Source of the DNA: Eledone cirrhosa
Lineage: Eukaryota
DNA: 64,000 nucleotides
Direction: 5' to 3'
Assembly: GCA_964016885.1 (NCBI GenBank)
Contig: OZ024744.1
Location: 69,750,001-69,814,000, forward strand
The notes beneath the pieces are model-generated. The model saw nothing but the letters and a program-made list of their open reading frames with translations. It searched no databases and had not been told where the DNA came from. The position numbers and the translations under genes were made by a program. Positions 13,261-59,872 of the stretch are shown piece by piece. Every line of letters begins with the position of its first letter. Positions within the stretch are counted from its first letter, which is position 1.

Positions 13261-15593
13261 ACAACCTGACCCCACCATATATAAGGAATTTTTGGTAACA
13301 TGTATTTATTATTTCTTCAAACATTTTAAACTTAGCTCCGTTTAAATGATTATTTATCTAGTTAATTTCTACGGACTAAAAAGAAATTTTGGGTAAATTT
13401 TATTTGATTGTTCTTCAAAATTGTATTTGATTGTTCTGTGTGTGTGTGTGGGGGGGGGGGGGGGTATACAAAAGAAGAAAACAAAGAGAAAAGATGGAGT
13501 AAGTATAGATACAGAAAATACTGGTCATTGAAAAGGTCACATGGTGTGTCGAAAAGGCTTTGGCAAATAATTAGTTGATCAATCCATTCTTTGATGGGTT
13601 GATTACCTGATTAATGTAACTGAAGTGAAATACAACCGGTGTCTCGGTGTATGTGCGTGTCTGTGTATTATTTTGACAAGTTATTATGTTTACCAGCCTA
13701 AGATAGACCAAACCATCGCTACCCCAATGATACAAGCCCGAACAGTGTGGACTTGTATGCAAAACACCAGGCGCAAGCCACCTTGTGGTTTAAAGGGACA
13801 GAATGCAGAAATCGTTACCCAGGAGAATCACGGAGAGAGACGCCTTGTAATAGCTATAACAGGGGTCAGCAACCCCTGGCTCGCCGGCCACATCCAGCCC
13901 TCGAGTGATTTATGTCCGTCCCGCCATCTTACACTGGACACTAATTATCTAATTAGTATTGAATACAGATACAGTAGTTCACTTCAAGGTTGTGCCGACC
14001 TGATGCCCATCACAAATCGCTGCTCATACCGTATATATTTACAGATACCTTTGTAACCTTATTATATTTTCCATTTATTATTATTTCCTCTTATCCATCT
14101 TTTTCTGGGCTTTCCGCCAAGCATTATATCACCATTATTATTATTTTCTGTGATTTAATGTATGTGTTTTTGTTCCATTCAACAAACACAGGTGTTGGCT
14201 GGAAGTATGAATTTTCGTCAGCGACTGGAAGGTATACTACCTTACGGTTCACGACTCGCTTTTATACCCATATTGTCATTCAATAAAATCACTCGTGAAT
14301 TATTGTCGTCTTCGTTTTCCTGACCTTACCTGTGCCCCCCCCCCCCCTCACGTAAAGCTGTCCTTGGAAAAATTACTTCGTTCCCTCCTCCCCAGAGTAT
14401 TTTCATTTGAGTTTGTTGTCTGGTAATATAACAACTATACAGTAGGTATCTTTATTCGATAATAACGGTTATTTAATTATTTGTGATAAATTGTGTGAAT
14501 TATTATTATTAGAATTAGGCCAAAAGTGGTTTAAAAAAACAAATGGCAACCCTGATCTAACAACGTCGTTAGAAACCTGGTTTTACATAATTTATTCACA
14601 ATTATCATATTTTATCGCATTACTGTATTTGCATTTACATTTGTTTTCATTGTTTCTTATTTCTTCATTCTGATTATTATACTTTTTGTTCTTTTTCCTT
14701 TCCATAAATCTTTTTTGTTTGAACATAAAAAACCAGCCCATGGAAGCTAAGAAAAGAAAAGTTGATTTGGAGTGCCGAACTTTTAACGATGGCTGGACAC
14801 TTAGCTATTTTTTCATTGAGCACTTCGGAAAATGTGTTTGCTTAATTTGTCAAGAAACCATTGCCGTGAAGAAAGTTTCAAATATTAAACGGCACTATGA
14901 AACTCGTCATAATCATTACAATAGTTTTACTGGAAAAGCACGAGTAAACGAAGTTGCACGGCTAAGAAATAATGTAACAAAGCAATCATCCTTTTTCACT
15001 AGAAAAGTTGAAGAAAGTGACCGAAACACTCGTGCTAGGTACGAGGTGTCAAAACTAATTGCAGAAAGGATGAAACCTTTTACTGATGGAGATTTCTTCA
15101 AAGAATTATTGTTGAAGGAAGCAGATGTTGCTTGTCCAGATAAAAGGGAATTATTTTCTGCGATCAGCTTATCGGCAAGAACAGTAACAAGGCGAATTGA
15201 AGAGCCGGCAGCAAATGTCAGAAGTGGCTTGGAGGGCATTTTAAATAATCTGGAGTATTATTCCATTGCTATCGATGAAACCACAGATGTGAAGGATATT
15301 TGTCAACTTGCAGTGTTTGTGAAGGGTGTAACACCAACATTTAATATTGTGGAAGAATTTGCTCAATTGATTCATATGAAGGACACTAGCACTGGAGCAG
15401 ATATTTTGGAAAGCAAAATAAAATGGATTACCGAAATGAATCTGAATTTATCAAAGCTTTCTGGAGTAATCACAGATAGAGCACCAGCAATGGTTGGAGA
15501 GAAAAAGGGGTTTGTTGCATTGCTCCAAAACCACATGGGTATTGATAAAAAAAACTAATTAAACTTCATTGCATTATTCATCAAGAAGCATTA

Positions 15594-17561
15594 CACCGTG
15601 TAACAAAACATTTTTTGTTCTCTGTTCCTAGCTTGTAATCACTTTTTTTGTGTTGCTTAGGTCCCAAATAAATTTTTAAAAAAAGTGCTATTAAACAGTT
15701 AAAAGTTTGGGTTTGTAAAAATTCTAAGCTATTCACTAGCATTATTTGTATGCTGGATTTTACGTTGTATGTAAGTTTAATTTGCTTATGTTAAATGAAT
15801 TTTTTATATATGTTTCAGGTTAAATTAAAATTATAAAATAAAGAGTAATGCCTAAAGAAAATTATAAAAGTACAATAAAGTATAAAATTGTTAAAAAGTG
15901 GATTAAAGAGATTTATTGATACTGGATTTTCGTACTCTGAATAAAGGGTAAGTTGTGTTTTAAGCACGAATTTTCATTAGTATGATTAGTGTTCTTTTAT
16001 ATTATTTAAATATTTATTTCCTTTTCCAATATTTATTTTGTATTCCAAGACAAGTATTCTGAATAAGAAGAGAAGATGGATGCTGAGGACTTGGATTACC
16101 TGCCTGAGGTACCAGAAAAGGTTCCTCACTTCCCAAACCAAAAAGAAGTCAATGACTTGGTCAGAGATATGGGTCTAACCAAGTCCAATGCAGAGCTATT
16201 CGTCTCCAGGATGAAGCAGTGGAGGTTGGTCAAGGAAGAAGTGCAGGTGACAAGTCAGAGAAGTCGACATGAACCTTTCTCAGGCTTTTACACTCTTAGG
16301 GATGGCTTCTGCCATGACGTGCCTGGACTGTTTGACGTTATTGGGGTGCCGTTTGTGCCCAAGGAGTGGCGGCTATTTATAGACAGCCCCAATACAAGTT
16401 TGAAGGTTGTCCTCCTCCACAATGGAAACAAGTTCCCGACACTGCCCCTAGCTCATTCAGTCTGCCTGAAAGAAGATTACTACAGTGTGAAAGTCCTCTT
16501 GGAAGCTCTGCAATACCAGTACAATTGAGAAATCATTGGAGACTTCAAGATGGTGGCTTTCCTGCTTGGACTCCAAGGAGGCTTTATCAAATTCCAATGC
16601 TTCCTCTGCCTTTGGGACAGCAGAGCTACCTCTGACCACTACAAAAGAAAGAACTGGGAGCAGCAAACAGAATTTGTAGTTGGGACCCGGAACGTCATGT
16701 GGGAGCCACTGGTTGATCCCAGGATTGTGCTCATGCCACCACTGCACATTAAATTGGGGTTGATGAAGCAGTCTGTGAAGGCTCTCAACCAAGAATCAGC
16801 CGCTTTTAAGTACCTTCTTGAGTTCTTCCCCAAGTTATCTGAGGCCAAAATCAAAGGTGGAATTTTTGCTAGACCTCAGATAAAGAAGGTGTTTGAGTCT
16901 ACCGAGTTCTCCAATAAGCGCAATAGGATTGAGAGAACAGCATGGAATTGTTTCAAGGCAGTTGTTAAGAGCTTCCTGGGCAACTGCAGAGCTGAAAACT
17001 ACCAGCAACTGGTGCAGGATCTGGTAAAGGCTTTTGGTGCCATGGGATGCAGGATGTCGCTTAAACTCCATATGCTGGACGCTTACCTGGAAAAGTTCAA
17101 GGACAATATGAGCGCCTACTCAGAAGAATAAGGCGAACGATTCCACCAAGATGTGAAAGAAATAGAGCGGAGGTACCAGGGCCACTACAATGAAAAATGT
17201 TAGGGGACTATATCTGGGGGCCAGTGCGGGAATGCGACCTGGACTACAACCGCAAATCCAGGAAATCCAGTCATTTCTGACGTGTATAAGTTGCTTTATA
17301 AGTGTTATTTGTTTTTACTTGTTTGCTTTTGATAAGCTTGTGTAATAAAATAAATATATACTCTGTTGATTTAATTATATGAACTGATAAATTTTTTTAA
17401 AATGTGTTTTTTTTTGAAAAATATGAATATTTCGAAATATCAAACTCCTGATCACAAACCCAAACTTCTGATTAAATAATAGTTTTTTTTTATAATAATG
17501 GGATATAACAAACCATGAAATGACACTTAGAACCGGGGAACAAAAAATATGTTACACGGTG
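15594..17561 (+). mobile_element. Chapaev3-like (CMC) DNA transposon nested in the hAT
   Basis: Termini CACCGTGTAACA…TGTTACACGGTG. TTA duplicated at 15591-15593 and 17562-17564. Removing the element restores HQEALCAK. Confidence 0.88.
16076..17280 (+). pseudogene. Chapaev3-like DDE transposase, disrupted
   Basis: WRLFIDS, LLHNGN, GDFKMV, CFLCLWDSR, PPLHIKLGLMK, MSLKLH and SEE*GERFHQD motifs, with in-frame stops at 16526 and 17129. The N-terminal part is not visible. Confidence 0.85.
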
Positions 17562-19014
17562 TTATGTGCAAAGTCACTGAATTTTAAGGACATGATGTCA
17601 GTGGTCGTGAAAACAGTGAATTTTATACTGTCTAGAGGACTAAATCACCGCCAGTTTCAAGAATTTCTGAAACAAATTGAAGCAGAGTATGGTGACCTTA
17701 CATATTTTTCAAATGTTCGATGGCTTAGCCGTGGAAAATGATAGAACGAGTATATGCATTGAGAGAAGAGATTTCTATGTTTTTAGAGAGCAAAGACCAA
17801 GATAATTCTTACTTTCAGGATCTACAGTGAGTTGTCAAGTTAGCTTTTTTAGTGGACATCACGACTCACATGAACACTTTGAATCTTGAGCTTCAAGGAA
17901 AGAACAAGGTTGTATTTGAGATGTTTGGTCAAATTACTGATTTTGAGAGAAAACTTCGACTGTGGGAATCACAACTTCAAAAAGAAAACTACTCTCATTT
18001 CCCAAGTCTCCAAAATCACAAGAGAGATATAATACCAGACATCTTTGTGAGCTCTATTAAGGATTTGAGAAGCGAGTTTTCCTCTCGTTTTGCTGACTTC
18101 CGGCAATATGGAACTCTATTTAAGTTATTTGGTACTCCTTACGAAACAGGTGTGGAGCAAGTGGCAGAAGAATATCAGTTGGAGTTAATTGACTTACAGT
18201 ACGACGAATCTTTGAAATCAAAATTTCAGTTCGAATCCACTACTGACTTCTACAAGAAATATATATTGCCAAGCGGAAAATATAGAAACATCTTGACTAA
18301 TGCGAAACTGATGATATCATTATTTAGAAGTACATATGTTTGTGAACAACTTTTTTCCAAAATGAAATATACTAAAAGTCATTTAAGAACAAGGTTTCGT
18401 GACGACCACCTGGATGATGTTTTGCTCCTGTCATCGACAAATATGTCACCTGATGTGGAGAAGTTATCGCACAATAAGCAGAAACAAGTGTCTCATTAAA
18501 TCATTTACCATTTCTAACTGTATTTCGTTTGTAGCAAGGAATTTGCTTTTTTTTTTTTGTTGATTGTGATAGTAGTTGTTTTTCTGTTATTCCTGCAGTA
18601 AAATAAGGAATTTGCTTTTTCTTTTGTTGAATGTGTTTGTAGTTTTTTTTCTTTTGTTTTTTTGTTATTCCTGCAGTAAAATAAGGGGCCTTGTTAAAAT
18701 AAAATTATATTAAATTCCTTCTTTTGCTTTAAACCTCCAGAAAATTTATTTACATATTTAATAACATAGCCCTCCTCCATGACACTGCATAGCTGTTTGG
18801 CCCTCTCTCTCCAAATGGTTGCCGACCCCTGAGCTATAAGATATACGATATAAGTTTTCGATCGAAGGTATTATCGGCACCATCCTGAATAAGGGAAAAT
18901 ATAACAGTTATCTGAGGCCATCCTTGTTATTGGACTTATCTCCTTTACAGAATAGTTAATGATAACAGGAAAATGCGCACCAAGTGAAGCATGAATATTT
19001 AATATCATGGGTAG

Positions 19015-25611: not shown

Positions 25612-25682
25612 TATTTTATCTGATGAGAACGCAAATAACATCCCATGATGATATTTGTTTTTGAAATGCGCATAATAAAATA
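25612..25682 (+). ncRNA. Type I hammerhead (family J, related to B)
   Basis: TATTTTAT-CTGATGA-long stem II-GAAA-TGCGCA-TA-ATAAAATA. Perfect 8-bp stem I and palindromic stem III. A copy with a deletion lies at 22660-22750(-). Confidence 0.82.
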
Positions 25683-26553: not shown

Positions 26554-26733
<180 letters not shown>

Positions 26734-26746
26734 GACATACATACAT

Positions 26747-42363: not shown

Positions 42364-42429
42364 GCACACATACGTACATATAACAACATACACACATACG
42401 TATATGCAACATGTACATACGTACATATA

Positions 42430-42935
42430 TATGTGTGTGTATGTATGTATATATATATACTACTGTACGTCTGTACACATATATGTATGTACGTATACAT
42501 ACTTATATTTAAGTATCAGCCGTACTAAGAGTGAGAAATGAAATTTCGTTTCATTTTTTCCGTTTATCGTTTTCGGTGCGGCCGGCCGATTAACTCACTC
42601 GATATGCAAATTAGGCTGCTCAGCCGTTAATATGCATAAGGAAAGTATATACTTTCAGACGTTCAATCATCTGGCAGGAAGGTATACGTTGCTGACGATA
42701 GCTAATAAGCTTGAAACAAGAACAGCGTTCCTTTGTCATTGTTGAACAAATGAGCAACGATGGTTGCTAGACACTACGGCTTAATACGGGATGTTTGTTT
42801 ACAAACACACCGAGCATTATAATAAATGTTCGGTGAATCCATACGTATATATATATATATGTGTGCATGTATATATATATACATACTACTGTACGTCTGT
42901 ATACATATATGTATATACGTATACATACTTATATA
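42430..42935 (+). mobile_element. Diverged family A unit (degenerate hammerhead at 42686-42728)
   Basis: ACGTTG-CTGACGA-tAGCTaataAGCTt-GAAA-CAAG-AA-CAGCGT. Confidence 0.75.
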
Positions 42936-43004
42936 TATATGTATACGTACATACATATATGTATACAGATATATATATACATATATATATACAGATATAT
43001 ATAT

Positions 43005-43071
<67 letters not shown>

Positions 43072-43076
<5 letters not shown>

Positions 43077-44392
43077 AAAATGGGGAGAAAATACTGCTGG
43101 TAGCACATGGATAACATGTAATAAAATAAGTCCCTCATCAGTGATTTGCCGACGATCATAGATATTTCATTGCATTAAAAATCATATACCTCACGTCGGT
43201 GCAATAATAACTAAATTAAGTTATTAGGACAATTAAAACGCGTAAAGCGAGTGAGACAGGAAAACAACAAAGAGTAGAGCTAACCGTAGAAGGAAGGAAA
43301 CGAGCTTCATAGTTATTCTGTTAGCATAAGCTAGGTGAATATATGAGCGCTTAGAAAAAAGACCTTTCGCGAACGAATGCAATGTGAGAAAGAGAGAAAT
43401 TGCCTTCGTCGCGAACGGGGTGAAGTGAGGAGAGGAGAAACAGTGAGTGAGTGAGTGGAAGTGTGAGGAAGAGTTAACTGACATGACAGAGGGGGCGAAA
43501 GAAAGTAGGAGAAACAGAGAGAGTGAGGGAGCAGTAAGAGAGAGAGAGAGAAAAAAACAGAATCGCAGTTTAGGTAAATATATGTGATAAAATGGGAAGA
43601 AAAATACTGCTGGTAGCACATGGATAACATGTAATAAAATAAGTCCCTCATCAGTGATTTGCCGACGATCATAGATATTTCATTGCATTAAAAATCATAT
43701 ACCTCACGTCGGTGCAATAATAACTAAATTAAGTTATTAGGACAATTAAAACGCGTAAAGCGAGTGAGACAGGAAAACAACAAAGAGTAGAGCTAACCGT
43801 AGAAGGAAGGAAACGAGCTTCATAGTTATTCTGTTAGCATAAGCTAGGTGAATATATGAGCGCTTAGAAAAAAGACCTTTCGCGAACGAATGCAATGTGA
43901 GAAAGAGAGAAATTGCCTTCGTCGCGAACGGGGTGAAGTGAGGAGAGGAGAAACAGTGAGTGAGTGAGTGGAAGTGTGAGGAAGAGTTAACTGACATGAC
44001 AGAGGGGGCGAAAGAAAGTAGGAGAAACAGAGAGAGTGAGGGAGCAGTAAGAGAGAGAGAGAGAAAAAAACAGAATCGCAGTTTAGGTAAATATATGTGA
44101 TAAAATGGGAAGAAAAATACTGCTGGTAGCACATGGATAACATGTAATAAAATAAGTCCCTCATCAGTGATTTGCCGACGATCATAGATATTTCATTGCA
44201 TGAAAAATCATATACCTCACGTCGGTGCAATAATAACTAAATTAAGTTATTAGGACAATTAAAACGCGTAAAGCGAGTGAGACAGGAAAACAACAAAGAG
44301 TAGAGCTAACCGTAGAAGGAAGGAAACAAGCTTCATAATTATTCTGTTAGCATAAGCTAGGTGAATATATGAGCGCTTAGAAAAAAGACCTT
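43072..44392 (-). repeat. Family G: 513-bp tandem array (~2.6 units), each unit with the permuted hammerhead-like motif
   Basis: Motif at 43130-43230, 43643-43743 and 44156-44256. Flanked by (TA)n. Confidence 0.85.
43130..43230 (-). ncRNA. Candidate non-circularly permuted, pseudoknotted hammerhead-like RNA
   Basis: Six helices are conserved with 5907-6007, four of them by compensatory changes. CUGAUGA, GAAA and UH each sit at the helix junctions expected for an HHR. Confidence 0.6.
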
Positions 44393-50474: not shown

Positions 50475-50880
50475 AAACGGAAAAAATGAAACGATATTTC
50501 ATTTTCCACTCTTAGAACGGCTGTTACTTAAATACAAGTATGTACACGTACATACATATATGTATACCGACGTACAGTAATATGTATATATATATATACA
50601 TACATGCACACATATATATATGCACGTATGGATTCACCGAACATTTATTATAATGCTCGGTGTGTTTGTAAACAAACATCCCGTATTAAGCCGTAGTGTC
50701 TAGCAACCACCGTTGCTCGTTTGTTCAACACTGACAAAGGAACGCTGTACTAGTTTCAAGCTTCTTAGCTATCGTCAGCAACGTATACCTTCCTGCCAGA
50801 TTGTTGAACGTATATACTTACCTTATGCATATTAACGGCTGAGTAGCCCAATTTGCATATCGAGTGGGTTAATCGGCCGG
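50475..50880 (-). mobile_element. Diverged family A unit with intact hammerhead (50742-50784)
   Basis: Minus: ACGTTG-CTGACGA-tAGCTaagaAGCTt-GAAA-CTAG-TA-CAGCGT. Confidence 0.8.
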
Positions 50881-52654: not shown

Positions 52655-55600
52655 CTACAGGCTGATATAGAGAGAAGGCCCATTCACTCGGGCCATTCTC
52701 GCCACTTTCACCCACCTTTCATAAAACTTGCTGGGATACAGCACCTCTCTCTCCATCCTGATTCTTCTTCCAAAGTGGTATTTGAAAAAAAGAATCAGTT
52801 GTTGGCCGGAGAGAAAGGTGTCTGACCTCAGCCCTTTCAACCTTGTCCACCATACAACCTCTTTCGCCATAGCTATCACACAAAGGAAAACCGCCTCTCC
52901 TTCGTTTTTGAAGGAGGGTGGCGGTTTGATCATGATAATGGACTCGGTGGTCAACTGGATTCGTCCCACCCGCGACAATAGTCGTTCTACATAGCCCCAC
53001 AGGTCAGTGACGCCCGGGCAGTGTATGAATGCGTGCGCGACGGTTTCTTCGTCTCGCACGCACCTCGGACAGATCTTTTTTACAGGGTCCCTGCCCGGGC
53101 GCCCATGTCTGTAGAGCTTGTCTCAAACTGGTAGAGCTCCTCGGTAGCACTGCCAGGCCAGGGACTTTTGGAAGTTGTCCATCGATCCCAGGCGGAAGGT
53201 CCTACCGAACAGACTGGCCAGTTCATCTTCCTCTACGCCTAGAGTTTCACCGAGCGCGTCGTCGCACTTGCTGCGGACCAACCCTCTATAGAATGACGAA
53301 GTGGAGTCTCCACTGATCGCCGGGTCCGCCTGCCAGAGGGCTGTGAGCGCCTGAGCACATTCGATGTGCCAGTCGCCCATTTTCCTCGGTCTTTGCTTGA
53401 CCCAGGACTGCAGCTCGGTCAGCGAGACGAGTCGTGGGAAGGCTCGCCTCACAAACGGGGCCCACACCGGTTGTCCGGTGAGGAATACGTAGAAATGCCG
53501 CAGCCTGAGCGCGTGTTTGCGCATCGTCAGCCACGGCAACCCCAGCCCTCCGTTGGAAGGGTGTTGGCAGCAGATGGATCTTCTCACCAAAGGAGTCCGC
53601 CTCTTCCAAAGGAATTGGAAGAGTGCGCGCTCCATTTTGGTGAGTGTTTTGGCTGGACAAGGCACGACGGTCAAGCGGTAGTAGATGGCGGACGCTATAA
53701 AAGTGTTCGCCACCTCCGCTCGACGTTTCAAGGATAGTTTACACTCGGCCCACTTCTGGGTGAGTGCAAACACCTTGGCCATCACCTCGTTCCAGTTCTT
53801 CTCCACCTGGAGGTCCGGACCAAACCAGACCCCGAGCAGCTTTACCGGTCCTTCCGTCCAGCGTCCGCCGACGCCATCGGAAGGCATCGGTTTGCCTCTC
53901 CACGATCCGAGTTGCAAACCGAAGGTCTTGTCCCGGTTCAGCTTCGCTCCTCTGAAACCTTCGTATTCCTTCAGTAAGGTGCCGACTTCCTCGATTTGCG
54001 AGGCGCTCGACACCATTACTGCTTTCCGCAGTCCTGGTTCCAGAGGGATTCCCTTCAATAGCTCCAACTTCCGCAGTAGTTGCTCGAGAGTCAGTACGTA
54101 CAGAAGGGAGGAGAGAGGGCATCCCTGTCGAATGGATCGCGTGATATGGAACGGCTCCAAGAGGTAGCCGTTCACCTTGACCCTTGAGTAGATGTTGCTG
54201 TTGTGCATTGCATAAACCATCCCCTGAACACGGGTCCGAAGCCTGGCGCCTCGAGCACCGCATCCAGGTAACGATGGTCAACCCTATCGAAAGCCTTAGA
54301 CTGATCCAAGTTGATCAGGGCCACACCGAAGCCGGGTTTACACCGTACCCTCTCTATGATGTATCGCATGAGGTGGAGGTTGTCGTGTATGGACCTGGTC
54401 GGGATTGCGCATGTCTGCGCTTCTCCCACCTGGTTGTCGACGACAAGCGCCAGCCTCTTTGCTAACACCTTGGTCAAAATCTGTAACTCTGTGCTTAGCA
54501 GAGTTATGGGCCGGATGTTGCCTATGTCATTCCCCTTATTCTCGTCCTTCCTGACCAGTGTGACTACGCCCCTGGTCACAGAACTGGGAATTCTCCCGTT
54601 CTGTTTCCAGTTGCAGTAGACCGCTTCCAGGAGACCGGAGAATAAGTCCGGCATTGCTACGTAAAATTCGTAGGGTAGACCGTCGAGACCTGGAGATTTG
54701 CGTTTGCCGCATTGGCTCAGTGGCTGAAATCGACTTTTTGCAGAACTTTGTCTTGCTGTCCGAGAGTCGCGGTAGGCCCGGCCCGCCTCCCTGCCCGAAC
54801 AGTTGAGCTGAAAGCCGCACACATCTGCTCGGCTCACGTATCACGCGTCCGTTTTGGTGCTTCACAGACCGAATCGTGGACTTGTTGCCACTTTTTGCCT
54901 CCGTCACTCGGGCCCAGCTAACAGCTTTGGCTCACTCGTTTCCCAGAGCGCGTATTTTGCTTCTGACAACGCAGCCCTCGTTCTTTGCGTCGAAGAACTG
55001 GTCCAAGGCCGTTCTCGTTGCTAGCACGCTGGTTACGTTGCCACTTCTAATTGGCTCTTCTACTTTATCTACCAGTTCCTTCTCGGTTCTATTTCTATCT
55101 AACGCTAATTCTTTACTAAAAACTATCGAGTCTAATCTAACTGTCCTCTTGAGAGAGTACCACCATCTGTTGTTGATAATGGCCCCTGTCAAGTGCTGTT
55201 TAACTAAAGTGCTAATCCGTCTACTGTAGGCTTTGCTTGTCGGTAACGACAAGTTCAGCTTCCAGCCGGGTCCTTGTTTATGGGTTCTATCAAGGTTGGC
55301 CATGCAGGTCACTAGTTTGTGATCTGAATAGGCAACCATGAACATTTGTGGACAGCTTAACATGTCCCTATCCTTATTTCTAACTAGAACCCTATCTCGG
55401 TACGATCTAGATGTTCCGCTAAGATTAGTCCACGTCCACAGTGGCACAGTCGGAAAATCTAGTCGATATCTATCGGCCAGGTCAAATCGGTCGATTAACT
55501 GTTTGAGGCTGTTACAGCCCCCTTTATCGGGACATGCTCCCACATAGTCCCAACATGCATCTAGGATTCCATTCCAGTCCCTCACTAAAAGCAAGGAGCG

Positions 55601-55985
55601 GGACGTTCCCAGAAAAGTCTCTAGACGTTTGAAGAAGTCTGGCCGCGGTGTCCCAGATGGGGCATATGCAACCACCAGCCTGAAGGCTGCACCTTTACTA
55701 CCGTCAACGTCTAGGACCACCAGTCGACCTTCCTGGTCCAGATGTACCGTCTGTGTTACGAGGCCCAGGTGTTTCCGCAGCAAAAGGGCCCTCACCCCCA
55801 GCTCCCGGTCGACAGAGGAATGCGTAGATCTCAAAGTCATCGAAGATGGGGGCTAGCTGTCGCTCGCTGTGGATCCTGGATTCGCAAATGGCTACTACAT
55901 CCATACTGTGCGACCTGAGGTCGTTTAAGAGTTTGCCCTGTTTCCAGGGCATCCCCAGGCCGCGTACGACTCTTATATTGGCCAT
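52655..55985 (-). pseudogene. Tx1 ORF2 (AP endonuclease and reverse transcriptase), frameshifted
   Basis: DVVAICESR, SDHKLV, KSPGLDGLPYEFY, RPITLL, LDQSKAFDRVDH, RQGCPLS and EETVAHAFIHC motifs. The YADD motif is absent (deleted near 54020). Confidence 0.9.
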
Positions 55986-56022
55986 GTTGGTGCTGAAAAG
56001 TTAAAAGAGGAAAAGAAATCAC

Positions 56023-57953
56023 TCACCCTTCGTCTCCTGGGGACCAGGCTGCACGATTTCCATGGGGGTGTTGGATGGGTTGTCTGGGTGGGTGGTGGTT
56101 TCCGGCGGGGTGGGGACGGAGATGTTTGTTGGGGGAGGGGGGTCTGGGAGGGGGGTCTGGGAGGGGGGTCTGGGAGGGGAGACATTTGAGAAGGACGCGG
56201 TTAAGTGGTTTCACACAGGAATTCCCCACATCCTTTTCAAATGTTTCTTTTAGGGACCTATAAGTTTGTATACGGACCCTAATCAGTTTTAGGTTCAGTT
56301 TTTTGTTATTTTTAATAGAGTGGGCGAAAGTTTTCCCTTCGGTGAAAACCGAAGGGTTGTTCGTGATGGTCTCCATTAGTGTTTTGTTTTCAGGGTTTAT
56401 GTAAGTGTAAGTGTAATTTTCTTGTGTTGTGTTTGTTTTTGTCTGAAGTTCTTGTGTGTGCTTTCGTTTTGTTGTAGGTATTTTGTTTTCAGGACGTGGG
56501 GGTTTTGTTTGTGATGTTTTTGTTGTTTGTGTTGGTGGTTGTATGTTTGTGGTAGTGTTTGCTGGTTTTTTGCTTTTGTGGTGTCTTTTCTTTCTTTTCG
56601 AGCGATGGGGTTCTCCCTCGTCGTCACTGGGTGATGGCGAGATAGCCTCATCTGTTGTATCGTCTGTGTGATTGGGGAGGGGTATGTCTTGGCGAGCTGT
56701 TGTGTCTGTATGTGATTTTGCAGTGGTTTTAGGTGGAGTGGGGTTGGGTGGAACTGTGTTTGTTGTGGTTATTTTTGTGTGTTGGTGTTGTTGTTGTTGT
56801 GGTGGTGGTGTTGGTGGTTGTGTTATTTTGATGGGTGTCGGCAGAAGAATCTTTTTTTGACTCATTAATTTAGGACAAGAAGCCCTCAGGTGACCCCTGC
56901 TAAAGCAGTGGTAACATGAAGGCCGCCTACCCGCAACCGAAAAGTTTATGTAGGTGAGTCCGTCCAGGAGTACACGTTGTGGGATCATAGCTATTCGCTC
57001 TGGGCTCATTTGCACCAGAACTTCAACGCTAGTCCCATTGAATACATCTCTGGGGGACTTTCCTACTGACAGTATTCTGTCTTCATCAAAATTGATGAAG
57101 CCGCACAGTATCCACCATATGTTTACCTTTGGTGTGACACTCGTCATTCTAATCTTTTGTGTCCTTTTTCCCATGTATGTAGGGAAAAAGGTATACAGGT
57201 TGGATACAAGTGGCGACACAGAGTAATTTTGGGTCGTCAATTGATCCTTCATGAGTACCGAAATACTCCCAAAGAGTTTGCTTCTTTGAATGAATGAAAT
57301 ATCATTTATTGAATTTTTGAAAACCAGTCCAATTTTTTTTTGTGACAATTGGACTGGTTTTCGGGTAGAATTGGAAACTGTCCTAAAAACTATCGTTTTG
57401 AGAGCAGTTTCCTTGCGAATTTCTACCGGAGAATTGATGCTGAAAGCACCATTTTTTCGAAAGTAACATATCTCCTAGCGTCCTTTAAAAGTTGTTCGGC
57501 ATTTGTTATGTCGAGATATGTTAGCTCCTCCTTTTTCTGAACTGTCTGTGCAAAGGAGATTTTCAGTTTCTTCGTGGAATTATCCGTGTTGGTGGTGTTG
57601 TCATTATTGTTGTTATTCTTGTTGTTATTCTTGTTGTCACTGATATTGATATTGTTCGTATTTTCCTTGGTGTTGGTGTTGTCTTTGATGCTGGTATTAT
57701 TGGCGTTGTCTTTATTTTTTTCTTTGTTGTTGTTGTCATTGTTGTTTTTATCATTATTATTGGTGTTGTTGTTGTTATTTTTGTTGTCATTGTACTGTTT
57801 GGTGTCATTTGTGTTGTTTGGATATGAATTTGTTTTTACAATTTCATTTCGTCTTTCCATCTCCATAGTATCTAGGGAAGAAGACAATGTTGACTGCGAG
57901 CTATGTAGTCTTACCGACTCTCCACCACCATTATCGTCGAACGCAGCGTTCAT
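56023..57953 (-). pseudogene. Tx1 ORF1 (gag-like), frameshifted
   Basis: CYHCFSRGHLRASC zinc knuckle, with N-rich and P/T/K-rich linkers. Split across ORFs 57423-58055 and 56023-57348. Confidence 0.8.
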
Positions 57954-58205
57954 AACGTAATCAAACTTCTTACGATATTTTTTCCAAAATTCGATGGAGA
58001 AATATTTTTCAAACGAATATTTCGACCCTGTAGGGGCGAAAATGAGTTGACCCACCGCCTGAAGGTCCAGACGGGGGGGGGGGGTGTCAAGTTACACAAT
58101 AATATAAAATTTTAACTGAAACTCACGTTTTTTTCTTACATAAATTAACGGAAACTTCTCCGCGAAGTTACACACGTCTGGTAGAGAGATAGATAGATAG
58201 ATAGA

Positions 58206-59490
58206 TATGTTTCTTTATTAACCACAGGGGCACAAAAGAAGGGGACAAATACAAAGGGGGAAGTTTACATACAATAAAAACATGTAAAATATTATCACAA
58301 ATACAATTTAAAAATTAGTCGATTTTCCCCAATAGGGGGAGACAGTTCATATGGGTAACACATACCCCCCCCCCAAAAAAAAATGTGCAACCCTCATCTC
58401 CAGGAGTACGAAGAGTTTGTACTCCTTTCCTCTCCTCCTCCTTTTCCTTAACCTACAGGCTGATATAGAGAGAAGGCCCATTCACTCGGGCCATTCTCGC
58501 CACTTTCACCCACCTTTCATAAAACTTGCTGGGGTACAGCACCTCTCTCTCCATCCTGATTCTTCTTCCAAAGTGGTATTTGAAAAAAAGAATCAGTGTC
58601 TGACCTCAGCCCTTTCAACCTTGTCCACCATACAACCTCTTTCGCCATAGCTATCACACAAAGGAAAACCGCCTCTCCTTCGTTTTTGAAGGAGGGTGGC
58701 GGTTTGATCATGATAATGGACTATTATTGTGCTGGTGTTGCAGGTGTTGGCAGTAGTGCCTTTTTTTGGCTAGTTAGCCGAGGACAGGAAGCTCTCAGGT
58801 GACCCCTGTTTAAGCAGTGGTAACATGAGGGCCACCTACCCACGACCGAAATGTTTATGTATATATGCCCATCCAGCAACACACGTTCCGGGATCCTAGC
58901 TATTCGTTCTGGTGTCATTTGGACCAGAACTTCCAGGCTAGTTCCGCTGAACAGGTCGCCGGAGGACTTACCTACCGATATTATATAGTCTTTTTCGTGG
59001 TTTAAAAATCCACATAGTACCCACCAAATATCAATATTTGGTGTGATAGTTTGGATTTTTATATTCTGTGTTCTTTTCCCCATGTAAGTGGGGAAAGGAG
59101 TGAACAGCGGTGACACAATTGGCGACACAGAATATTTCTGTGCCGTCAATTGGTCTTTCATTAAAATGGATAAACTCCCGTAGAGTCTACCCTTCTGAAT
59201 AAAAGCAATGTCTTTTAAGGCAATTTTTAAAGCCAACTCAATTTCGCCTTGTGAAAGTTGAGTCGGTTTTCGGGTTTTGTTTGATACTGTCCTGAAAATC
59301 ACAGTTTTCAAGGCAGCTTCTCTTCGCAAATTTGGGGGAGAGTTTATGCAGAATGATCCGTTCTCCCCAAAAGTTACATATTGTCTGGCGTTATTCAAAA
59401 GTTCATTTGCATTTGAAATATCTACCGGGGTATAGCTTACCGTTTTCTTTACGGTTTGCGCAAACGATATTTTGGCGTTTACTTCCTTGG
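58206..59490 (-). mobile_element. Chimeric or internally deleted Tx1 copy
   Basis: 58206-58722 is nearly identical to the 3' end at 52407-52943. 58723-59490 is a diverged ORF1 piece (CYHCLNRGHLRASC). Confidence 0.85.
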
Positions 59491-59522
<32 letters not shown>

Positions 59523-59523
<1 letters not shown>

Positions 59524-59872
59524 TTCTTTATTAGCCACAAGGGCGCAACAAGAGAGGGGACAATACAAAGACATGCCGGGGATTTTACATACAGTCGTGT
59601 AAAAAATATAAAAACAAACAATTTCAACAATCGAAATCCCCAATAGGGGGGAGGCGCCACAAATGGGTTGTTTAATACCCCGTCGATAGAACAACCCTCA
59701 ACTCAAGGAGCGTGTTGTGCAAGTGCTCCTTTCTTCCTTTTGCTCTCTTCCTCAACCTACAGGCTTATAAACAGAGAAGGCCCAATCACTCGGGCCATTT
59801 CGCTTCATTCACCCACCTTTCAGTAAATTTACTGGGGTGCAGTGCCTCTCTCTCCACCCTGATTCTCCTTCT
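59523..59872 (-). mobile_element. 5'-truncated Tx1 3' end (second subfamily)
   Basis: TTTCTTTATTAGCCACAAGGGCGC terminus and ORF2 C-terminal homology, with (GATA)n on both sides. Confidence 0.85.

Follow-up and report, generated by a model that had tools for sequence, protein, structure and literature searches.

What RNA does a 101-nt motif encode that stands three times, at 513-bp spacing, on the minus strand of an Eledone cirrhosa window (the whole stretch of DNA analysed, 64 kb), and what kind of element carries it? We consider it probable that this motif, which recurs in two diverged copies (the F motifs) at 5.9–6.6 kb of the window, is a type-SGC non-circularly permuted hammerhead ribozyme, residing in a non-autonomous Penelope-like element (PLE) derived from the 3' end of a Naiad. 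The arrays concerned are as follows.

43072..44392, minus strand: G array, 5' truncated, with 2.57 units of 513 bp between (TA)n tracts
44156..44256, minus strand: putative SGC hammerhead copy 1, predicted cut 44211/44210
43643..43743, minus strand: putative SGC hammerhead copy 2, predicted cut 43698/43697
43130..43230, minus strand: putative SGC hammerhead copy 3, predicted cut 43185/43184, after AUA, from hammerhead numbering
5897..6602, minus strand: F array, about 1.15 units of a 618-bp relative
6007-5907, minus strand: full F motif, predicted cut 5961/5960
6602-6525, minus strand: 5'-truncated F motif

The tandem 513-bp array described in an initial annotation of this DNA was recovered, with 2.57 units across 43072-44392, and on re-reading the sequence each of the paired segments that it had assigned to 43230-43130 was found at its place on the minus strand. 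The two full units of the G array differ by 1 base, copy 1 of the motif carries a single change in the stem I–P3 linker, and the array ends about 113 nt beyond the last predicted cut. The 513-bp unit is non-coding, with a GC content of 0.40. For the F motif the location proposed earlier (6007-5907) was right but its details needed correction: the F hairpin contains a single A.C mismatch, stem III differs from that of G by a change on one side only, and position 11.1 is A in both window F copies and C in other genomic F copies. The F unit measures 618 bp and its upstream motif copy is cut off 5' of P3; its likeness to the G array is confined to the surroundings of the ribozyme and one 48-bp stretch. 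An HMM built from 104 genomic copies found exactly these five motif copies in the window and no others. The window contains the string CTGATGAG 8 times where 1.37 occurrences are expected (8 or more in 0 of 100 shuffles), and five of these occurrences belong to the SGC motif. Those at 25620 and 32326 stand in other contexts, with no evident hammerhead stems.

Read 5' to 3', the first half of the motif comprises P1, the P2 hairpin, P3, a single nucleotide, P4, UGA, stem III ending in U16.1, A17, and stem I. A 5-nt linker then leads into the P3 partner, position 11.1, GAAA, the stem III partner, a 3-nt bulge, GA, a pyrimidine, and the P4 partner, and the 3' part consists of one nucleotide, the stem I partner, CUGAUGA, nucleotide 10.1, and the P1 partner. 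In copy 3 these parts are placed as follows.

43201..43230, minus strand: junction arm replacing stem II, with the P1 5' strand (43230-43227), the P2 hairpin (43226-43205), and the P3 5' strand (43204-43201)
43191..43199, minus strand: P4 5' strand (43199-43194) and the non-bulged strand of the kink-turn, UGA (43193-43191)
43179..43190, minus strand: block S, with the stem III 5' strand, U16.1 (43186), A17 (43185), and the stem I 5' strand
43161..43173, minus strand: block G, with the P3 3' strand, U11.1 (43169), GAAA (43168-43165), and the stem III 3' strand
43149..43160, minus strand: bulged strand of the kink-turn (3-nt bulge, GA, U) and the P4 3' strand
43130..43147, minus strand: block C, with the stem I 3' strand, CUGAUGA (43141-43135), G10.1 (43134), and the P1 3' strand

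In hammerhead numbering, the core (C3-U-G-A-N-G8-A9, G12-A-A-A15.1, and U16.1-H17) is complete in all three G copies, and the cut site predicted earlier between 43185 and 43184 holds up on that numbering; hammerhead cleavage leaves a 5'-OH and a 2',3'-cyclic phosphate. The blocks read S-G-C, in agreement with the non-circular strand order that had been proposed; this does not match the orders of types I, II, and III (CGS, GSC, SCG) and does match that of type SGC. No continuous stem II exists between CUGANGA and GAAA, where at most one pair (10.1:11.1) can form. The CUGAUGA strand instead pairs with P1 and the GAAA strand with P3, upholding the earlier view that a junction replaces stem II, and it is for want of a continuous stem II that we file the motif as a hammerhead variant. 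A canonical type I or III fold spanning neighboring units was ruled out, the stem II strands being non-complementary in every unit. The idea that the conserved feature is a 1-bp stem II was dropped as well: in several of nine published Naiads read by eye, pairing between positions 10.1 and 11.1 is impossible and each of them lengthens P1 or P3 instead, in support of the earlier view that stem II is replaced.

The loop between stem III and P4 has a 3-nt bulge followed by tandem G.A and A.G pairs between two helices, as in the definition of a standard kink-turn (PMC8191799). The TGA and TAYGAY linkers, singled out as conserved by the initial annotation, together form its consensus. The -1b:-1n pair is C:G in 22 of 22 aligned rows, and 3b:3n is non-Watson-Crick in the window copies. 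The loop, here a predicted fold, differs from the standard form in having U at 2n in older families (4/27) and A at 3b in some subfamilies.

The initial annotation regarded the architecture as unrecognised. This stands for the split stem II and the genomic setting, which are new, but not for the permutation, which is not new because the order has been published as type SGC (HRIMA-1; Eckert et al. 2023, PMC10085705). HRIMA-1 shares with the window motif the S-G-C order, the full core, and a short linker from stem I into the strand preceding GAAA. In HRIMA-1, however, stem II lies between blocks G and C as a single helix, and stems I and II are connected by an extra helix. The window motif has neither an intact stem II nor a helix that connects the outer strands of stems I and II; its stem II strands are non-complementary and pair with the 5' junction arm, its stem III runs through the kink-turn-like loop into P4, and its setting is a genomic retroelement. 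According to PMC10085705, type SGC was found in metatranscriptomes only, with none in genomes of known organisms, and five natural examples cleaved in vitro. The window motif fails the descriptor of Eckert et al. because that descriptor needs a continuous stem II and CGAAA; the pattern is blind to motifs of this type because their CUGAUGA-side strand pairs with P1 and their GAAA-side strand with P3. Rfam likewise returned no hammerhead match to the array at E up to 10, and neither a hammerhead nor another credible family among the best 150 of the 269 window matches or among the six array matches. We describe the motif as a new structural variant of type SGC, the novelty lying in the split stem II (the P1/P2/P3 junction) and in the kink-turn-like loop.

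Covariation among genomic copies, on which the initial annotation had made its reading depend, was found. Within 22 younger-subfamily representatives, picked by hand from the 104 copies to the exclusion of older families with other spacings, and chosen by patterns that fix TGA and GAY, pairing holds in 96.0% of 748 cells and both sides have changed in 18 of 34 pairs. Neither value was reached in any of 500 shuffles, a control that ignores the relatedness of the rows, and partners slid out of place pair in 29%–44%. All seven helices show at least one two-sided change, including the crossing stem I and P3. Stems I and III, which flank the core, covary (5/6 and 2/5 pairs), as do P4 (5/6), P2 (3/8), P1 (1/4), and P3 (1/4), so that the key crossing helix P3 has only one such pair in this genome. 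Further pair types were no more numerous than in shuffled alignments, 401 of 500 shuffles reaching the count, and one row (F_L039) is out of register at P1. The 10.1:11.1 pair, the lone remaining pair of stem II in young families, covaries: it takes four standard forms in 19 of the 22 rows (U-A 7, G.U 7, A-U 4, G-C 1) and is unpaired in 3. Its recurrence as C.A in unrelated families (L057, L062, L067, and L390-L406) suggests a tolerated non-canonical pair. The junction varies in older motif families, one of which lacks P2; loci L043-L046, L101-L103, L105, and L426 belong to an older family in which the P2 hairpin is missing, the core is followed by extra bases, and the junction is simpler.

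The abundance of the motif was assessed across the 3.0-Gb Eledone cirrhosa genome. A family pattern gave 4,909 matches against 0 in the control, the invariant bases with free stems 10,809 against 11, and the bare core at fixed spacing 23,340 against 626; with both kink-turn GA steps added to the core, 16,754 matches (about 74%) were obtained against 3. Among the first 30 bare-core loci, picked regardless of the kink-turn, 27 were motif copies, two were chance matches, and one was truncated. These 27 copies all retain the GA of the bulged strand, while A at 1n is kept in 25 and U stands at 2n in 4. At least 13 of 15 positions in stems III, I, and P4 were paired in 73 of 90 distinct matches from the genome itself, which are related copies rather than independent draws, compared with none of 110 matches from metagenomes and none of 119 from viral sequences; among the matches listed, metagenome and viral contigs yielded chance matches only. 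Local folding gives modest z-scores (-1.9 for G and -0.4 for F). Folded as a circle, the 513-nt unit is more stable than shuffles (z = -3.5), and the ribozyme helices are minor in it (about 0.15 for III and P4 and about 0.02 for I) under a model without pseudoknots. Judged from sequence, the motif is very probably a self-cleaving hammerhead, and there is little doubt in our minds that a hammerhead has been selected for cleavage in the source elements.

The copies have the ends of a mobile element. Array 3' ends lie at +105 to +119 past the predicted cut in 38 of 81 cases and at +60 to +69 in 11 of 81, with (TA)n beyond them; the 5' ends vary in position, tandem spacings range over 445–706 bp, and the 5' part is inverted in loci L001, L011, L026, L028, and L031. 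All traits of a non-autonomous PLE are thereby present: partial tandems, a fixed 3' end, 5' truncation or inversion, a (TA)n target, and no ORF. The earlier description of a retrozyme-like array was accurate as to the tandem arrangement, but the element is better seen as a dispersed non-autonomous PLE linked to the Naiad clade than as a local satellite. Non-LTR retrozymes (Cervera and de la Pena 2020, PMC7229834; bioRxiv 10.64898/2026.07.22.740005) are similar in their non-coding tandem units with one hammerhead each, low GC, thousands of copies, and proposed PLE origin. They differ in carrying type I hammerheads, in their demonstrated circular RNA, and in units of mostly 150–450 bp, whereas the unit here carries type SGC rather than type I, measures 445–706 bp, and has circles that are only predicted. 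The bioRxiv survey covers type I only and no mollusc.

We picture the process as follows. P3 and P1 would stack under the A9.G12 pair in the place of stem II, with the junction adopting two registers one base apart, with or without a single 10.1:11.1 pair. P4 would leave stem III via the kink-turn and come back to stem I and P3 at their outer ends, holding the two together much as the loop 1–loop 2 contact does in ordinary hammerheads. A tandem transcript would be cut after AUA, once per unit, into 513-nt monomers with a 5'-OH and a 2',3'-cyclic phosphate, which could be ligated into circles. A Penelope-type RT/endonuclease acting in trans would nick (TA)n DNA, and reverse transcription would start past the cut site, at a distance of about 110 nt or, in some cases, about 65 nt. 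Crossing of that site by the RT, on a circular or uncut template, would produce arrays whose 3' end is fixed while the 5' end varies and is sometimes inverted. An enrichment of 5' ends at the cut site was not seen: 178 copies have (TA)5 before it, about 0.8% of core matches, and because so few copies begin there, the RT presumably reads across the site as a rule. The data fit a circular and an uncut template alike. Circular RNA processing of the monomer is plausible, and we hold the case for a circular intermediate to be evenly balanced. The fixed end downstream of the ribozyme parallels the Anolis PLE, in which, as published, reverse transcription initiates internally, while hammerhead cutting needed protein, was not needed for in vitro insertion, and left uncut RNA as the main substrate.

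A link to Naiads is suggested by the published 3' ends of that clade. Naiads are reported to have (TA)n targets, partial tandems, and 5' truncation and inversion, and to be without canonical hammerheads, a "core" or "half core" being flagged in 18 consensi (Craig et al. 2021, PMC8557442). They encode an RT with an N-terminal GIY-YIG, unlike the 513-bp unit, which encodes nothing. We read by eye about 300–380 nt of the 3' end in 53 of the 54 consensi of File S5 of that paper, together with places 27-56 of 62 for CTGATGA and the first 15 places each of CTGACGA (of 23) and CTGAGGA (of 25). Non-circular hammerheads were recognised in at least 20 of the 54; none was parsed in the other 34 within the passages covered. 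Nine have S-G-C order with the P1/P2/P3 junction (Amil, Aacu, Anas, 3_Chem, 2_Movir, Plae, EuTe, Obim, and Ovul), the spider entries Ptep and Smim have S-G-C order with a hairpin between S and G, and two are incomplete S-G-C forms (Bfor, with a stem I of 2-3 bp, and Esco, with a decayed junction). Seven nematode entries (1-3_Nbra, Hcon, Hpol, Asuum, and one Pristionchus entry) read C-S-G, with stem II intact and a closing helix; type CSG previously comprised two unique sequences (PMC10085705). Only the two octopus entries have the kink-turn loop, plain bulges taking its place in non-cephalopod Naiads, and their P2 loop resembles that of several Eledone cirrhosa subfamilies.

Some other Naiad 3' ends fall outside these wirings. 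Strings at the 3' ends of 1_Movir, Mley, Mgal, Bpla, Mphi, Scon, and Mmer are presumably twister-like. In the same File S5 (PMC8557442), the oyster, hemichordate, and 2_Chem Naiads have another conserved paired motif at the 3' end, and the ostracod (Dst-1 to Dst-4) and Sdum entries contain both core halves in an unparsed arrangement, possibly representing further wirings. Naiads may swap ribozyme classes.

Within the Eledone cirrhosa genome the protein side of this link is decayed. No Naiad-like RT occurs in the 137 motif loci or the window, and the 513-bp unit has no ORF. A Naiad RT motif pattern matched six places, and a Naiad-like RT fragment used as query gave 153 genome matches; the 150 of these that were listed are fragments, mostly with stops, and contain no intact Naiad ORF. 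Protein search found no full-length relatives of this RT, neither it nor the other PLE fragments matched a Pfam family credibly, and no GIY-YIG domain was found on either side of the RT in 12 extended loci, for which reason we call the RT Naiad-like only by its DKA and GxPMGxN motifs. A motif HMM detected no window-type motif at 36 RT loci. In 4 of the 12 extended loci, an SGC motif does lie 764–1247 nt 3' of the decayed RT. This RT-linked family has hairpin wiring, unlike the window motif, and when searched with position 8 free and C or U allowed at position 3, its core has U3 in 17 of 17 copies and A8 in 14 of 17. Such a C3-G8 to U3-A8 covariation has been reported in PLE hammerheads, and we see no easy explanation for the swap other than selection acting on the active fold. 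Nested insertions in L398 and L411 are the only sequence that the 513-bp unit has in common with the Naiad-like RT remnants. On balance a Naiad origin of the element is likely, and the motif probably represents, for many Naiads, the ribozyme that they seemed to lack. We also lean towards the wider view that, in much of the Naiad clade, the ribozyme normally found at the 3' end is a non-circularly permuted hammerhead, of type CSG in nematodes and of type SGC with its stem II split in cephalopods, arthropods, cnidarians, and an acanthocephalan. A bolder step from there, which we consider unlikely, is that the cephalopod motif is a natural hammerhead under the control of a host protein that binds the kink-turn. 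The literature searched, from which most subscription papers were absent, held no report of permuted hammerheads in Naiads or animal genomes.

Could the motif be hammerhead-shaped and yet cut little, or only with protein, serving to present the template to a retroelement protein or to bind L7Ae-family proteins at the kink-turn, with insertions made from uncut linear multimers? U.U is the usual 3b:3n pair of box C/D kink-turns. The window G copies have U.U there too, and box C/D kink-turns have been described as folding only with protein; the protein-dependent cutting and largely uncut substrate of the Anolis PLE, the absence of in vitro cutting for 8 of 9 Xenopus retrozyme dimers, the A-U-rich stem I of G, and the fact that nearly all genomic copies span the cut site point the same way. 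We nevertheless judge this reading improbable, as the catalytic nucleotides stay constant over many subfamilies while the stems turn over, the related family, through its U3-A8 swap, keeps intact a pair that is particular to the active fold, and stem III has its full 5 bp, unlike the minimal PLE motifs that require dimers. Very remote is a satellite or microsatellite-associated repeat with hammerhead words arising by chance, or a box C/D-like RNA: CUGAUGA is similar to C/D boxes and Rfam gave weak C/D snoRNA matches (17–19 bits vs thresholds of 65–85), but the crossing helices show compensatory changes, none of 229 chance matches paired equally well, and the identical architecture appears, to the eye, in Naiads of several phyla with unrelated stem sequences (in the parts of File S5 covered).

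A self-cleaving SGC hammerhead, our preferred reading, leaves room for another partner. Remnants of a PLE with a C-terminal endonuclease, which we take from its CxxC linker to be Neptune-like, lie near motif copies and include the end of the RT, the CxxC linker, and GIY-YIG.

L044, 1795-3290: PLE remnant
L032, 1-1280: PLE remnant
L036, 309-1160: PLE remnant
L043, 310-1841: PLE remnant

The family appears fairly young because the L032 protein is 95% identical to that of L044. It is conceivable, though clearly the less likely case, that present copies of a real ribozyme were moved by this younger non-Naiad PLE, an estimate that bears on the partner question only. The Naiad-like RTs are decayed compared with the young arrays, the PLE remnants lie within 2.5 kb of motif copies in all four loci, and just 5' of the F array, at 6726-6937 of the window, stands a perfect inverted repeat (104-bp arms, 4-nt loop) resembling the tail of the PLE in L044. 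The closeness of PLE and motif can, however, be attributed to a shared target sequence, and this PLE has its own canonical type I hammerhead, present in L044, L032, and L036, is separated from the motif copies by the PLE tail and (TA)n, and occurs in mixed orientations. We did not accept the C-terminal-endonuclease PLE as parent of the motif.

If our reading is true, it explains why the very successful Naiad clade seemed hammerhead-free. The Eledone cirrhosa genome would hold more than 20,000 copies in a retrozyme class invisible to type I searches, and non-circular permutations, so far a few hundred environmental sequences, would rank with the largest families of ribozymes in the genome of an animal. 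A hammerhead that does without a continuous stem II, and is built instead on a four-way junction and a kink-turn, would be a new solution for a much-studied catalytic core, with the implication that animal ribozyme counts based on descriptors are too low.

Other repeats surround these arrays in the window. At 27480-30309, head-to-head arrays of a 491-bp unit are present in 2.8 and 3.0 copies, with relatives at 42393-42967 and 50481-50876; every unit carries a minimal type I hammerhead of the canonical kind, lying about 130 nt from the start in the unit that begins at 28833, and this is an ordinary retrozyme in the neighborhood of the permuted one. An Rfam match to mir-3910 at 6726-6937 is below threshold. 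The sequences at 26729-27121, 14674-18499, and 52655-59527 are presumably remnants like a non-LTR restriction-like endonuclease element, DNA transposases, and an L1-type element, and a 3-kb degenerate (TGG)n-based minisatellite with periods of 18, 36, and 54 bp extends over 35310-38364.
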